Of a DNA stretch of 64,000 nt, positions 14,909-56,249 are shown in pieces. The notes below the pieces were generated by a model. It did no database searches. It was given only the letters and a program-made list of their open reading frames with translations, and was not told the origin of the DNA. How positions within the stretch are numbered: position 1 is the stretch's first letter; each line of letters opens with the position of its first letter. The stretch covers positions 570,801-634,800 of the forward strand of contig OY821638.1 of NCBI GenBank assembly GCA_963682105.1, in the 5' to 3' direction. The position numbers and the translations under genes were made by a program. The DNA comes from Smithellaceae bacterium. GTDB lineage: Bacteria > Desulfobacterota > Syntrophia > Syntrophales > Smithellaceae.

Positions 14909-15595
14909 ATGAAAGAGGACAAGTCTAAGGACAAAGAAGATAAAAAAGAGAAATCGGAAACCGAGGAGGCTTCTGAGGCGAAATCAAAAGTTCAGGAATA
15001 CATTGAAGCGATTATCATCGCTATTTTAATCGCCGTCGTCGTCCGGACTTTTGTCATCCAGGCATATAAAATACCTTCCCGGTCGATGGCGCCCACGCTT
15101 CTGGTGGGTGATCATCTTCTGGTCAATAAATTCACCTACGGCGTTAAAATTCCGATTATTCGAAAAACGCTGATCTCTGTTTCTGAACCGAAGCGCGGAG
15201 ATATTGTTGTTTTTGAATACCCTCAGGACAGGTCCAAGGATTATATCAAACGCGTCATCGGAGTGGGCGGAGACAAGATAGAAATCAAAAATAAAGAAAT
15301 CTTCATCAACGACAAACCTTACAAAGACACCTTCGGTATATACAGCGACAGCACGGTTTATCCGGCCATTGTGCAACCCCGGGATAATCTGGCCCCGATT
15401 ACCGTTCCCAAAGGATCTCTTTTCGTTATGGGAGATAATCGCGATGAAAGCTATGACAGCCGTTTCTGGGGTTTTGTCGATCTCACTGACCTGGAAGGAA
15501 AAGCGCTGATTATTTACTGGTCATGGAATTCTGAACCGCAGGATAATCCTTTCAATAAAATCCGCTGGGAACGATTGGGTCATCTGCTTCGTTAA
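14909..15595 (+). CDS. lepB: Signal peptidase I
   Basis: 228 aa with the catalytic Ser box IPSRSMAPTL, the Lys box YIKRVIGVGGD, and the GDNRDESYDSRFWG box. Confidence 0.9.
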   Translation: MKEDKSKDKEDKKEKSETEEASEAKSKVQEYIEAIIIAILIAVVVRTFVIQAYKIPSRSMAPTLLVGDHLLVNKFTYGVKIPIIRKTLISVSEPKRGDIVVFEYPQDRSKDYIKRVIGVGGDKIEIKNKEIFINDKPYKDTFGIYSDSTVYPAIVQPRDNLAPITVPKGSLFVMGDNRDESYDSRFWGFVDLTDLEGKALIIYWSWNSEPQDNPFNKIRWERLGHLLR

Positions 15596-15603
15596 TCCTG
15601 GAA

Positions 15604-16866
15604 TTAATTGAAGAGAGCCGCCACGACCATAGCCAGGGATAACCCGATTAAAATTATGACGGTAGACCATGAAATGATATTCATCAACTTGCTGTTGACA
15701 TACTCTCCCATGATGCGCTTGTCATTGATTAAAAGCAACATGAAGATCAGGACAAAGGGCAGCAAAATTCCGTTGATTACCTGAGAATAATACATGATGG
15801 CGATTAGCGGCACATTGGGCAACAGGATAACGCCCGCCCCCAGGAAAATCATAAATGAATAAAGCCCGTAAAACTGCGGCGCTTCCAAAAATTTGGTATT
15901 CAAACTCGATTCCCATCCGAAAGCTTCGCAAATCGTGTAGGCCGTAGACAAAGGCAGTATCGAGGCGGCGAAAAGCGATGCGTTGAGTAAACCAAATGCA
16001 AAAAGCCACGATGCATAAGTTCCGGCCAGCGGCGCCAGAGCAATGGCCGCATCTTTAGCCGTTTCAATTTTTAAGCTGTTCTGAAACAACGTGACGGCGC
16101 AAAGCATAATAATGAAGAAGGCGACGATATTGACGGTAATGGACCCGAAAATGACATCCATCCGGGCGTATTTATAGCTTTCCGCTTTCAGACCTTTATC
16201 CACGATGGATGACTGCAGATAAAACTGCATCCATGGAGCAATCGTGGTTCCGATGATACCAATGGCCATCGTCAGCATGCCCGAATCAAATTTAAGCTCC
16301 GGTGTGATAACCGCTGTTTTAATCTCAGACCAGTTCGGATGAACCAGAAAACCTGAAATAATATAGGAAAAATAAAATACACAGGCTACCAGAAAGGCTT
16401 TCTCAACGGACTTGTAGTTTCCCTTCACAACAAGCCACCAGACAAAAAATGCGCCGGCAGGCACTGAAATATATTTACTGACCCCGAAAATCTCCATGCT
16501 GGCGGCGATGCCGGCAAATTCACACAGCGTATTTCCGATGTTGGCGATAAACAAAACAATCATCAGATAGAAAGTAATTTTCGCTCCGAACCGTTCACGG
16601 ATCAAATCGGAAAGGCCCTTGCCGGAAACAACCCCCATCCGGGCGCACATTTCCTGAATAAGGATCAGGGCTGCCGTAACCGGAATCAATATCCAGATCA
16701 GGCTCAGACCGTATTGGGCGCCGGCCAGGGAGTAAGTGGTAATGCCGCCCGCGTCATTGTCGACATTAGACGTGATAATCCCCGGACCGATAAAGGCAAA
16801 AAAGAGCCCCAGTTTCCACAAACCGGTCTGTAATGATTTTTTCCAAAGGAATTTAATTTTTTCCAT
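15604..16866 (-). CDS. NRAMP/SLC11-family transporter with non-canonical (NRMT-like, putative Mg2+) binding-site residues
   Basis: 420 aa with about 11 TM helices. TM1 reads DNDAGG (nt 16744-16755 encode DAGG) where canonical MntH has DPGN. TM6 reads GTTIAPW (16231-16251) where canonical proteins have GAxxMPH. Confidence 0.85.
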   Translation of the reverse strand: MEKIKFLWKKSLQTGLWKLGLFFAFIGPGIITSNVDNDAGGITTYSLAGAQYGLSLIWILIPVTAALILIQEMCARMGVVSGKGLSDLIRERFGAKITFYLMIVLFIANIGNTLCEFAGIAASMEIFGVSKYISVPAGAFFVWWLVVKGNYKSVEKAFLVACVFYFSYIISGFLVHPNWSEIKTAVITPELKFDSGMLTMAIGIIGTTIAPWMQFYLQSSIVDKGLKAESYKYARMDVIFGSITVNIVAFFIIMLCAVTLFQNSLKIETAKDAAIALAPLAGTYASWLFAFGLLNASLFAASILPLSTAYTICEAFGWESSLNTKFLEAPQFYGLYSFMIFLGAGVILLPNVPLIAIMYYSQVINGILLPFVLIFMLLLINDKRIMGEYVNSKLMNIISWSTVIILIGLSLAMVVAALFN

Positions 16867-16893
16867 AATTCCGTTTCCGGCTCAACAGGAACA

Positions 16894-18156
16894 TCATTTG
16901 CCCAATTGAGGCGCCACAATATCCAGCAGATTTTTGAAAATAATTGCGCCCTGGATATGATCCTGATCATCGACCACCGGCATGGCGGTTAAAGCATACT
17001 TGGCAAACTGATCGGCAATCGTGTCCGCCTTATCATCGAGTTTGACGGACACCACCCGCTCATCCATGATGTCTTCCATCCGTTTATCCGCATCAGCCAG
17101 GATCAAATCGCGCAGGCTGACAACCCCCAGCAGACGTTCTTCTTCGTCCGTTACATAAACATAATGAACCCAATCCACATCGGCAGCCTCCTGCCGGAAT
17201 TTTTCCAGCGCTTCCGAAACCTTCATCGACGGCCTGAAGCTTAAAAAAGACGTGGTCATCATACCGCCGGCTTCCTGCTCAGGGTGAGAAAGCAGTTCCT
17301 TCACATCGTCGGCGATGTCTTTTTCCATTTCTTTCAGAATGCCTTCAGCTTTGGCTTTGGGCAAATCCCCGATCAGGTCGGCGGCCTCCGACAGGGACAT
17401 CTCTTCGATAATATCCGAAGCTTTTTCCGAATTGAGATCGGTAATCAAACTGACCTGAACTTTCGGATCCGTTTCTTCAAGGGTTTCAGCAGCCGTTTCT
17501 ACATCGAGCGACTGGAATAAAGCCGAACGTTGTTTGATATCCAGATCTTCCAGAATATCGGCAAGGTCTGCCGGATGGAGTTGGCCGAGTCTGTTCTGCG
17601 CGATATTCAACCGAAGGAGATCCGGTGAACTTAAAGGCTGAGTACATTTCCACGAAATGAGCTGATTAGGCAGCGTATAGTCAAACAATCCCTGCACAAC
17701 GGCGTCAAATACGCGCGTCAGCCCAACGCGGCGGATCAGCCCTCTAAAACCGACATCCACATGAACCAGATGTAAACCGCGCCGTGTCTTTAAAAACTGC
17801 AGGTCGTTCACTCGGCGTATTTTAGCGCCGTGCGTGTCGACCACCTGTTTATCCATCAGCGCCTCCTTGAGAAGCAAATCCCCTTCTTTCAGACTTACTT
17901 CCGTCAGAGCGTCTCGCGACCGAATCCCAACGGTAACCTCGCCGTTTACGTAAATCACTTCACGCCACGGCAAGAAAGTCCGTTGATTCTTTTCGGCAGG
18001 TTTTAAAACAATTCCCGTAACAATCGGATAAGGCTCAACAATTTCAGCCGTTACATCACAGACGCGGCCGATGTTTTCACCCGTTTCACCGATAATTTTC
18101 TTCCCCAGGATTTCGCTTAAAAACAAAAAAACCTGAGGTTCGGGATTGATTGCCAT
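16894..18156 (-). CDS. Soluble PRC-barrel + MgtE N-domain + CBS-pair protein (MgtE cytoplasmic module without the membrane domain)
   Basis: 420 aa. It has an N-terminal PRC-barrel-like segment (ILGKKIIGETGENIGRVCDV), an MgtE_N-like acidic helical region (LHPADLADILEDLD...) and two CBS motifs. The protein ends where the MgtE TM domain would begin. A 27-nt gap separates it from the NRAMP gene. Confidence 0.8.
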   Translation of the reverse strand: MAINPEPQVFLFLSEILGKKIIGETGENIGRVCDVTAEIVEPYPIVTGIVLKPAEKNQRTFLPWREVIYVNGEVTVGIRSRDALTEVSLKEGDLLLKEALMDKQVVDTHGAKIRRVNDLQFLKTRRGLHLVHVDVGFRGLIRRVGLTRVFDAVVQGLFDYTLPNQLISWKCTQPLSSPDLLRLNIAQNRLGQLHPADLADILEDLDIKQRSALFQSLDVETAAETLEETDPKVQVSLITDLNSEKASDIIEEMSLSEAADLIGDLPKAKAEGILKEMEKDIADDVKELLSHPEQEAGGMMTTSFLSFRPSMKVSEALEKFRQEAADVDWVHYVYVTDEEERLLGVVSLRDLILADADKRMEDIMDERVVSVKLDDKADTIADQFAKYALTAMPVVDDQDHIQGAIIFKNLLDIVAPQLGK

Positions 18157-18229
18157 GATAACTGTCCTCCAGGTTGACTCTTTATATCAGTTATTTTTTT
18201 TAAACGAAAGTTTTTTTAACTTTTTTGTC

Positions 18230-18259
18230 TTGACAGGTTCGATAGCCACGTTGTAAGAA
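18230..18259 (+). promoter_or_regulatory. Candidate sigma-70 promoter of the pyr operon
   Basis: TTGACA at 18230-18235, a 17-18 nt spacer, then GTAAGA/TAAGAA at 18253-18259. Confidence 0.4.
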
Positions 18260-18271
18260 TCTCAAGATTAA

Positions 18272-18373
18272 CCCTTTTAATTTAATCCGGCGAGATTGAA
18301 AAAGGACAGCCCCATGAAAAACATCAGCATAAAGTTTATAAAGCCTTTCTCCGCAAGGGGAAAGGCTTTTTTT
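18272..18373 (+). promoter_or_regulatory. PyrR-binding leader RNA with intrinsic terminator (pyr attenuator)
   Basis: A stem-loop CCUUUU...AAUCCGGCGAGAUU...AAAAGG (18272-18304) resembles the PyrR binding-loop consensus (ARUCCAGAGAGGCU...AAGGA). It is followed by the terminator hairpin AAAGCCTTTC / GGAAAGGCTTT plus T7 at 18340-18373, directly upstream of pyrR. Confidence 0.6.
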
Positions 18374-18384
18374 ATGCCCGATGA

Positions 18385-19023
<639 letters not shown>

Positions 19024-19046: not shown

Positions 19047-19976
19047 ATGATGAAACTTGGCAAAAAAGACATCCTCGGCATTCGCGACATGTCGGTGGAT
19101 GAAATCAACACGATTCTGGAAACCGCCGAATCCTTTCTGGAAATTTCAACGCGAGAAATTAAGAAGGTCCCGACGCTCCGCGGGAAAAGCGTGATCAATC
19201 TGTTTTACGAAGCCAGCACCCGCACGCGAACCTCCTTTGAAATCGCCGGTAAAAGACTCAGCGCCGACACGATCAATATTTCAGCATCGACCAGTTCCGT
19301 GGTTAAAGGCGAAACGCTGATCGACACGGCGCGCAACCTGGAAGCCATGAATCCGGACATCATCGTTATCCGGCACAGTGCGGCTGGGGCTCCGCACATC
19401 CTGGCCTCACTGCTTAAACAATCCATTATCAACGCAGGCGACGGCGCGCATGAACACCCTTCACAGGCGCTCCTGGACATGATGACCATTAGAGAAAAAA
19501 AGGGCCGCATCGCCGGTCTGAAAATCGCGCTGGTCGGCGATATTCTTCACAGCCGGGTGGCCCGATCCAATATTTACGGTCTCTCCAAGATGGGCGCCGA
19601 AGTGGTCGTAGCCGGGCCCGCCACCATGATGCCGCGAGACATTGAGCAAATGGGCGTTCGGGCCTACACAAAAATAGAAGAAGCCATTAAAGACGCCGAT
19701 GTCGTCATGATGCTGCGCATTCAGTTGGAAAGGCAGAAGCAAAACATTTTTCCCTCTCTTCGGGAATACGCCCAGCATTACTGCCTGAACAGCAGAAATC
19801 TGAAACTGGCCAAGGAAGATGCCATTGTCATGCATCCGGGCCCGACGAACCGAGGCGTTGAAATCTCACCGGATATCGCCGACGACCCGAACTGCTCGGT
19901 CATCCTGGACCAGGTGACCAACGGCGTCGCCGTCCGTATGGCGCTTTTATACCTGCTTACCGGAGGAAACGAATGA
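19047..19976 (+). CDS. pyrB: Aspartate carbamoyltransferase catalytic subunit
   Basis: 309 aa with STRTR, HPSQ and HPGP motifs. Confidence 0.93.
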
Positions 19977-21262
19977 AACAATTATTGAAAGGCGCGCGGG
20001 TCATTGATCCCTCACAAAACATAGATGCTCAAATGGATCTGCTGATTGAAGACGGGAAAATTTCTGCCTGTGAAAAAAGCATTCCCGCCCCACCGGATAT
20101 CAGCGTCAGGGATCTGACCGGCCTGATCATCGCGCCCGGCCTTATCGATATGCATACACATCTGCGGGAACCGGGATATGAATATAAGGAAACCATCGCG
20201 ACCGGATCCGCTGCCGCCGTGGCCGGAGGTTTCACCTCCATTGCCTGCATGCCGAACACCGCCCCCGTCAACGACAACCGCGGCATCGCTGAATTCATCC
20301 GCCGCAAGGCCGCTGAGGCGAATCTGGCCAACGTTTATCCCATCGGGGCTATCAGTATGGGCTCCGAAGGCAAGCAGATGACGGAATTCTGGGATCTCAG
20401 AGACGCGGGGGTGATTGCGCTCTCCGATGACGGAAAACCCGTTATGGATGCGGCTCTCATGCGCAGGGCGATGGAATACGCCTATTCACTGGACCTCCCG
20501 ATCATCCAGCACTGCGAAGACAAAAACCTTTCGGGCGCCGGACTTCTGAACGAGGGCTATTTTTCGACTATCCTCGGCATGCCGGGAATTCCAGCCATTG
20601 CCGAAGACGTTATGGTGGGACGTGACATTCTGATTGCCGAATATACGCGCACCCGCATCCACATCGCCCATGTCAGCACTGAAGGCTCTGTCCGCCTGAT
20701 TCGCGATGCCAAAAAGCGCGGCGTCCGGGTCACGGCGGAAACCGCTCCGCATTATTTCACCCTGACTGATGAAACGCTCCAGGGATATGACACGAACTAT
20801 AAAGTCAGTCCGCCGCTGAGAAGCGCAACCGATGTTGCCGCCATTAAAAAAGGGCTGGCGGACGGCACGCTTGACGCCATCGCCTGCGATCATGCGCCGC
20901 ACGGACGGACGGACAAAGAAGTGGAATTTGAGTATGCCTTAAACGGCATGACCGGCCTGGAAACATCTCTGGGATTAAGCCTGAATCTGGTTTCGGAAGG
21001 CATTCTAACGTGGCCGGAACTTGTCGCCAGAATGAGCCTCCATCCAGCGCGCATTCTGAATCTGCCCAAAGGCACGCTGGCCAGGGGCGCCGATGCCGAC
21101 ATCACGGTGATCGATCCCGGTCTGTCCTGGACCGTCGATGTGAAGTCTTTTGTTTCCCGCGGCAAAAATTCACCGTTTAACGGCCGGCAGATGAAGGGGC
21201 GGGCTGTTTTAACGATCGTCGGCGGCGAGATCAAATTCGACTTGCTTGCATCAAAGTCATGA
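19973..21262 (+). CDS. pyrC: Dihydroorotase
   Basis: 429 aa with the amidohydrolase metal motif DMHTHLR, plus HVST and DHAPH. It overlaps the pyrB stop by 4 nt. Confidence 0.9.
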
Positions 21263-56173: not shown

Positions 56174-56249
56174 TCCCCAGTAGCTCAGTCGGTAGAGCGG
56201 CTGGCTGTTAACCAGCATGTCCGTGGTTCGAGTCCGCGCTGGGGAGCCA
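56174..56249 (+). tRNA. tRNA-Asn (anticodon GTT), CCA encoded
   Basis: Manual cloverleaf: acceptor TCCCCAG/CTGGGGA, D arm GCTC-AGTCGGTA-GAGC, anticodon arm GCTGG-CTGTTAA-CCAGC, variable loop ATGTC, T arm CGTGG-TTCGAGT-CCGCG, discriminator G, then CCA. Confidence 0.93.

Follow-up and report, generated by a model that had tools for sequence, protein, structure and literature searches.

A stretch of 64,000 nucleotides (nt) from the genome of a Smithellaceae bacterium (contig OY821638.1; hereafter the window) contains, at positions 15604-18156, two minus-strand open reading frames (ORFs) of 420 codons each, which fill this segment exactly. The downstream ORF encodes a membrane transporter of the SLC11/NRAMP family that we assign to the NRAMP-related magnesium transporters (NRMT); the upstream ORF encodes a soluble protein related to the cytoplasmic part of the Mg2+ channel MgtE, which we refer to as the partner. 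The gene pair and its upstream region are laid out as follows.

15604..16866, minus strand: ORF of the NRMT-clade SLC11 transporter, 420 amino acids, Pfam family PF01566
16867..16893, minus strand: spacer of 27 nt between the partner gene (upstream) and the NRMT gene (downstream)
16894..18156, minus strand: ORF of the partner, a predicted soluble protein of 420 amino acids with a PRC barrel, a PRC-like barrel, an MgtE N-domain and a CBS pair
18157..18269, minus strand: AT-rich leader/promoter region of the pair, with a ribosome-binding site GGAGGA at 18165-18170

The 27-nt spacer on one strand is consistent with a single operon, and no convincing terminator was found in the sequence between the two genes. 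The GGAGGA element sits 8 nt ahead of the ATG of the partner gene, and no match to the sigma-70 consensus was found in 18157..18269. A first-pass annotation of this DNA had proposed that the partner gates the transporter in trans, a reading that the evidence gathered here leaves plausible. The same idea had been published when Shin et al. named the NrmT family in 2014 (PLoS Genet, PMC4072509), so that the proposal is a rediscovery. These authors described the pairing of nrmT with an MgtE-like fragment (Ca_c0685 in C. acetobutylicum, ACP_2976/2977 in A. capsulatum) and speculated that the partner provides "cytoplasmic feedback regulation of transport", or a chaperone function instead; as in the window, a soluble homologue of the MgtE cytoplasmic domain lies immediately upstream of nrmT in their operons (PMC4072509). 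Both the pairing and the notion of feedback in trans are therefore already in the literature, and the locus is an ordinary example of a known gene pair. By itself it adds little to the pair of 2014; its interest rests on the role of the partner.

Identity of the transporter

The transporter matches the Pfam Nramp family (PF01566) over profile positions 1-356 of 357 (E 2.8e-104). In keeping with the first-pass annotation, which had set the protein apart from MntH, its best match among all PDB sequences is the NRMT of Eggerthella lenta (EleNRMT, 7QIA; E 5.6e-116, 391 bits, ungapped over 399 residues), whereas the MntH, DMT, NRAMP1/2 and NRAT structures score 100.5 bits or less, with MntH at about 1e-27. 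Its scores against the MntH models also remain below the respective cutoffs (144 bits for NCBI NF001923, cutoff 430; 78 bits for TIGR01197, cutoff 272.5). The site-defining residues of NRMTs were taken from Ramanadane et al. 2022 (PMC8806188) and mapped onto the window transporter.

16744..16755, minus strand: ion-site motif D38-A-G-G41 of transmembrane helix 1 (TM1), aligned with D55 and G58 of EleNRMT
16231..16251, minus strand: ion-site motif G206-T-T-I-A-P-W212 of TM6, from the alignment to EleNRMT
D38: ion-site residue, D55 in EleNRMT
G41: ion-site residue, G58 in EleNRMT
T207: ion-site residue, T224 in EleNRMT
A210: ion-site residue, A227 in EleNRMT; Ala where MntH has Met
Q362: ion-site residue, Q379 in EleNRMT
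E116: Glu of TM3, E133 in EleNRMT

Both ion-site motifs are identical in the EleNRMT alignment. The positions of the proton-path His residues in helix 6b are occupied by W212 (the first His) and L217. EleNRMT therefore resembles the window transporter in its D, G, T, A and Q site residues, in the TM3 Glu and in the loss of the proton-path His residues; the first of these is Trp in both proteins, and the second is Asn in EleNRMT but Leu in the window transporter. The MntH Mn2+/H+ symporters have the LeuT-type SLC11 fold and the Pfam family in common with it, but carry DPGN and A-x-x-M-P-H where the window transporter has DAGG and T-x-x-A-P-W. An identity as MntH is excluded by these motif changes and by the sub-cutoff model scores. 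Judged by its alignments, the transporter is a member of the NRMT clade and a clear orthologue of EleNRMT, not an MntH. The family is a large one, with 954 clusters (50% identity) at E < 1e-30. The first-pass annotation had read the two genes as lying 27 nt apart and the motifs as DAGG and GTTIAPW, all of which the ORFs and their translations confirm (motifs at residues 38-41 and 206-212), and its statement that they form the signature of the E. lenta NRMT proved correct, every ion-site residue being identical to that of EleNRMT.

In proteoliposomes, EleNRMT carries Mg2+ and Mn2+, not Ca2+, without H+ coupling, and the Thr that corresponds to T207 is needed for Mg2+ transport (PMC8806188). By homology, the window transporter most likely imports Mg2+, with Mn2+ as another possible substrate, and transport would be driven by the membrane potential.

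Architecture of the partner protein

In Pfam, the partner matches MgtE_N (E 3.9e-27), CBS twice, and PRC with 27.8 bits, above the cutoff of 21.2. E-values as low as those obtained for the two proteins lie well outside what chance would give. Its successive units, some delimited with the help of an alignment to Thermus thermophilus MgtE (TtMgtE; Tt in residue numbers), are listed below.

17929..18132, minus strand: PRC barrel 1, residues 9-76; PF05239 at residues 11-76 (27.8 bits), beta strands of the structural model at residues 9-76
17635..17880, minus strand: second beta domain, residues 93-174; putative divergent PRC-like barrel, in which residues 137-158 form an inserted helical hairpin
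17278..17598, minus strand: MgtE N-domain (helical repeat), residues 187-293; PF03448 at residues 193-293 (E 3.9e-27)
16900..17271, minus strand: CBS pair, residues 296-419; PF00571 in two stretches, TtMgtE alignment, Foldseek matches to MgtE and other CBS pairs

The model for full-length mgtE (TIGR00400) gives 153 bits against a cutoff of 232.75, and only profile positions 23-252 of 450 are covered. The TtMgtE alignment stops at Tt residue 253 and the partner ends five residues further on, near Tt 258, where the plug helix would start; the plug helix and the transmembrane domain are thus absent. The maximal 19-residue Kyte-Doolittle hydropathy is 1.16, compared with 2.6 for the transporter, which likewise indicates that the partner has no transmembrane part. 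The similarity to the cytosolic domain of TtMgtE (2YVY) is extensive, with a phmmer E-value of 2.1e-33 and, for the partner model against Mg2+-bound 2YVY in Foldseek, a target TM-score of 0.84 and a root-mean-square deviation of 2.1 over 233 C-terminal columns. T. thermophilus MgtE (2YVX, 2YVY, 2ZY9) therefore shares the N-domain and the CBS pair with the partner, together with the ligand positions of Mg6, Mg7 and part of Mg5, but it has a plug helix and a transmembrane domain, which the partner lacks, so that the partner is not a channel; conversely, it is devoid of PRC barrels, of which the partner appears to carry two at its N-terminus. More than 3700 homologues of the partner were found, and the closest are all 420 residues long with identical architecture. 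A full-length MgtE split by a frameshift was considered and excluded, since more than 100 close homologues keep the 420-residue architecture and the gene that follows encodes an NRMT, not the transmembrane domain of an MgtE. On these comparisons, the partner is a soluble, membrane-less MgtE cytoplasmic module preceded by a PRC barrel. The first-pass annotation had described the upstream gene in these terms (PRC, MgtE_N and a CBS pair, ending before any transmembrane segment), and the Pfam and TIGR00400 matches, the TtMgtE alignment and the hydropathy all agree with it.

An AlphaFold2 model built from 58 sequences (mean pLDDT 82.8, pTM 0.45) consists of a beta barrel, a second beta domain, a low-confidence linker, and the MgtE N-domain (residues 187-289 in the model) with the CBS pair. 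The N-terminal half is covered by no solved structure. When isolated, this half matches PF05239 at 32.2 bits. Residues 93-174 match the same family in 8 of 20 orthologous segments (best E 1.3e-4; the window's own segment gives no match alone), and hhalign relates PRC domain 1 to the second beta domain with a probability of 62% and an E-value of 7e-5. The second beta domain thus looks PRC-like, as a divergent barrel of this family. Across 65 orthologues it is this domain, and not the MgtE-homologous sensor, that forms the best-conserved block of the partner. Ten of its residues are invariant across phyla (D102, Q104, D107, R115, D118, D134, G139, R142, R143 and W169), and conservation reaches 90% or more at V116, G136 and N117, the last of which supplies the Asn of RVND; the resulting signature is D-x-Q-x-x-D ... 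R-V-N-D ... D-x-G-x-x-G-x-x-R-R ... W. The conserved residues might serve for docking or bind an additional cation. The putative tandem PRC module makes up nearly half of the partner, in the window and in the great majority of the orthologues examined. Relative to the literature searched, this N-terminal tandem module with its conserved second barrel is a new feature of the partner family: in the account of Shin et al. the partner is a small homologue of the MgtE N-terminus, and its PRC part goes unmentioned (PMC4072509). At the opposite end of the protein, 12 of the 65 orthologues (L041, L069, L071, L079, L081 and others) carry a basic C-terminal tail of the form P-x-A-W-K-K-+-x-P-+-x-F, which is absent in the window's clade. 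Such a tail could contact the membrane or the transporter.

For the sensor itself, the Mg2+ sites assigned by Maruyama et al. (PMC5882242) were compared after aligning the window partner and the 65 orthologues to TtMgtE.

Mg7 (Tt E59): window E224, kept; acidic in 51/65
Mg6 (Tt D95): window D260, kept; Asp in 64/65
Mg5 (Tt D250): window D412, kept; acidic in 45/65
Mg5 (Tt D226): window A388, lost; Asp in only 10/65
Mg4 (Tt D91/D247): window S256/N409, both lost; D/D in 43/65, S/N in 11/65
Mg2 and Mg3 (plug helix): absent in the partner

The two Mg4 positions covary across the orthologues, and the S/N form is found among Syntrophales-type loci including the window (L002-L016); this clade-specific loss of both acidic Mg4 ligands is also new. 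The ATP contacts of MgtE, taken from PMC5529423, show a mixed picture. Those to the phosphates and the ribose are kept in the window partner (Y332, R349, D350), the adenine-stacking Phe (F227) is replaced by Leu here and in 33 of the 65 family members, and the adenine-contacting N203 position is not conserved in the family. Taken together, the ligand and ATP-contact comparisons indicate that the module is a genuine MgtE sensor by descent, whose ligand chemistry is only partly preserved in the window copy.

The retained nucleotide contacts might suggest that the partner senses energy or nucleotides and not Mg2+: with ATP, ADP or a cyclic dinucleotide bound to its CBS pair, it would adjust NRMT to the energy status of the cell. 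CBS pairs commonly bind adenine nucleotides, that of MgtE binds ATP, and the acidic ligands of Mg4 and Mg5 are partly lost in the window copy. However, the substitutions at the adenine-binding positions speak against such a role, as do the nearly invariant Asp of Mg6 and the D/D pair at Mg4 in most of the family. Moreover, ATP modulates Mg2+ sensing in MgtE and does not replace it (PMC5529423). We consider a nucleotide sensor of this kind unlikely.

Conservation of the gene pair and its link to Mg2+

Genomes (one per species) were scanned with a motif derived from an alignment of 12 NRMT sequences, which gave more than 600 matches, and the loci of the best 80 were analysed. They come from Syntrophales, Zixibacteria, Omnitrophota, Nitrospirota, Acidobacteriota, Planctomycetota, Bacillota, Chloroflexota and methanogenic archaea, in all of which loci with a directly upstream partner occur, and from Spirochaetota, Actinomycetota and Armatimonadota. 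Among the 75 informative loci (those with usable upstream DNA), the partner gene lies directly upstream of NRMT on the same strand in 64, of which 61 are full (PRC and MgtE halves) and three truncated or split; it lies elsewhere within 5 kb in four, and is missing from this interval in seven. The two genes are separated by an approximate median of some 16 nt, and in many pairs they overlap. Conversely, a partner profile run against metagenomes retrieved 80 loci, 73 of them informative: NRMT is directly downstream of the partner in 62, elsewhere in the locus in four and absent in seven. The co-occurrence of the pair, which the first-pass annotation had left to be established, is thus conserved across phyla, and the quantitative figures in both directions are a modest addition. 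Of the outcomes which that annotation had named as fatal to its proposal, neither clustering of the transporter with MntH nor a lack of conservation of the pair was observed. In total, about 125 operon pairs from many phyla were collected across the scanned loci (L002-L161). In the NRMTs associated with a partner, the former Met position is occupied by Ala, Thr or Ser.

Several loci depart from the common arrangement. The seven NRMT loci without a partner within 5 kb are L057, L065, L068, L058, L062, L074 and L077, the first three of which belong to magnetotactic Nitrospirota with Magnetobacterium-type genomes. The gene order is reversed in L131 (2667-5287), with NRMT upstream of the partner, and in L034 (3447-5001) the partner sequence is spread over two overlapping frames, owing to a frameshift or an assembly error. 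Long ORFs in some loci were examined as possible fusions of the two proteins and rejected as artefacts of upstream ORF extension.

Could two such genes be transcribed together and yet their products never meet? Both would then serve Mg2+ homeostasis, the partner acting on another target or merely buffering or reporting Mg2+. The seven loci in each direction (7/73 and 7/75) in which the other gene is not found nearby are compatible with this view, as is the lack of any natural partner-NRMT fusion among the 150 best NRMT representatives. Nevertheless, adjacency of about 85% in both directions, in bacteria and archaea alike and with frequent start/stop overlaps, is typical of the subunits of one complex. 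In addition, no alternative membrane partner was found in the neighbourhoods of the seven orphan partner genes, which are flanked by unrelated housekeeping genes (RmuC, GidB, ScpA, an M48 peptidase, glutamine synthetase, OpgC, DNA ligase) and have no other recurrent neighbour. Co-transcription without contact is, in our view, improbable.

A regulatory link to Mg2+ is provided by the M-box riboswitch (RF00380). None was found in the window at the Rfam gathering threshold, nor at 18050-18550 in a permissive scan with E-values up to 10. Of 13 related loci scanned, however, four have an M-box, with scores of 131-137 bits.

L036, 3421-3586: M-box ahead of the partner-NRMT operon
L042, 3422-3588: M-box ahead of the partner-NRMT operon
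L063, 3423-3593: M-box ahead of the partner-NRMT operon
L077, 4557-4723: M-box directly ahead of NRMT, in a locus without partner

Two of these loci are of Geobacteraceae type and one is from Bacillota, all three with the partner; the fourth, from Peptococcaceae, is devoid of it. M-box control and the partner therefore occur jointly or separately. Orthologues that share 57-62% identity with the window protein are tied to Mg2+ by these four riboswitches. In the nrmT family of Shin et al., the M-box is frequent but not defining (PMC4072509), and the window locus is one of those without it.

These observations bear on the ion that the pair handles. For the A. capsulatum pair it has been suggested that the physiological substrate is Mn2+ or another transition metal, which the partner would sense; the A. 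capsulatum transporter rescued a Mn2+ transport mutant, and a Mg2+ mutant only weakly (PMC4072509). Transport of Mn2+ by EleNRMT and the lack of an M-box in the window would fit this suggestion. On the other hand, the ion site agrees with that of EleNRMT at every residue, the T207 required for Mg2+ transport among them, the soft Met ligand is absent, and the orthologues with 57-62% identity are under the control of a Mg2+ riboswitch, while Mg2+ exceeds Mn2+ by orders of magnitude both in the cytoplasm and in the environment. A Mn2+ system is thus rather unlikely.

Proposed role of the partner and genomic surroundings

From what the two proteins are, how their genes are arranged and how widely the pair is conserved, we infer that the partner may bind the transporter physically, that the regulation would be inhibitory and that Mg2+ would be its ligand. 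In other words, the partner would be a cytoplasmic Mg2+ sensor that docks on NRMT and feedback-inhibits uptake in trans, an interpretation to which we give somewhat better than even chances. MgtE, CorA and other Mg2+ pathways of the electrophoretic kind require gating by cytoplasmic Mg2+. As an H+-uncoupled, electrophoretic Mg2+ pathway, NRMT would need the same cytoplasmic feedback against overload, and the partner would supply it in trans. The PRC module could attach the sensor to NRMT on its cytoplasmic side, a task that the plug helix fulfils covalently in MgtE. Mg2+ in the cytoplasm, perhaps along with an adenine nucleotide, would then compact the N-domain/CBS sensor and throttle uptake. 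A precedent for such docking is the H subunit of the reaction centre, in which a PRC barrel covers a membrane complex on its cytoplasmic side. A more specific version, in which the tandem PRC is a dedicated docking adaptor for an MgtE-type sensor of Mg2+ (possibly also of ATP) gating an SLC11 carrier in trans, and in which the change from D/D to S/N at Mg4 resets the Mg2+ set-point in the Syntrophales clade, seems to us to fall just short of an even chance.

Several points weigh against feedback inhibition by the partner. Of the six cytoplasmic Mg2+-ligand positions of MgtE that were compared, the window partner retains only three; it has S256/N409 at Mg4 and A388 at Mg5 and is without the plug-helix sites Mg2 and Mg3, and the arrangement of its domains is uncertain in the model, as the pTM of 0.45 indicates. 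In about 9% of the NRMT loci, no partner gene lies within 5 kb. NRMTs also transport without it: NrmT of C. acetobutylicum restored the growth of a Mg2+-transport mutant, the partner being dispensable (PMC4072509), and EleNRMT was studied alone in proteoliposomes, with no discussion of an accessory partner (PMC8806188). The preference of the A. capsulatum transporter for rescuing the Mn2+ defect belongs here as well. In the sole published co-expression test, addition of the partner left the Mg rescue by the A. capsulatum pair unchanged (PMC4072509); as an inhibitor is not expected to better a rescue, this result is weak evidence either way. Finally, the literature searches turned up no study of the partner later than Shin et al. 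2014, and no report of binding or regulation by a protein of its family.

In place of an inhibitor, the partner might be a positive factor, either one that accepts or chaperones the metal in the cytoplasm or one that aids assembly or stability. Shin et al. listed a chaperone among their alternatives (PMC4072509), and the tight translational coupling of the two genes would fit a stoichiometric co-assembly. Yet NRMTs are fully active alone, both in vivo and in proteoliposomes, co-expression brought no improvement, and a chaperone is hard to justify for an ion whose free concentration is millimolar. We attach a low probability to a role of this type.

If the partner does gate NRMT, it would be the first soluble, trans-acting regulatory subunit of any protein of the SLC11/NRAMP family, and the cytoplasmic sensor of MgtE would be a portable module that has moved between two unrelated architectures of Mg2+ transporters. 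The collected operon pairs, the conserved tandem PRC module and the short list of invariant residues offer handles for testing the partner, the last of them by mutation.

The surroundings of the pair are shared with a close relative, in which the synteny is identical: pyrC-pyrB-pyrR, the divergent partner-NRMT pair, and a convergent lepB-DUF456-secF-secD cluster. In the window, the stop codon of the convergent lepB-like gene (14909..15595, plus strand) and that of the NRMT gene (at 15604, minus strand) are 8 nt apart, leaving no space for an intrinsic terminator of either gene. On the other side, a divergent intergenic region of 318 nt is common to the upstream region of the partner gene and to a PyrR-binding leader RNA (RF00515; 18270-18375, plus strand; 56.2 bits, gathering score 54), which is the only RNA element there. 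This leader includes a terminator-like hairpin at 18340-18369 and precedes pyrR (18475..19023), pyrB (19047..19976) and pyrC (19973..21262). Farther away, the window contains a tRNA gene at 56174-56246 (plus strand; RF00005, 66.9 bits).

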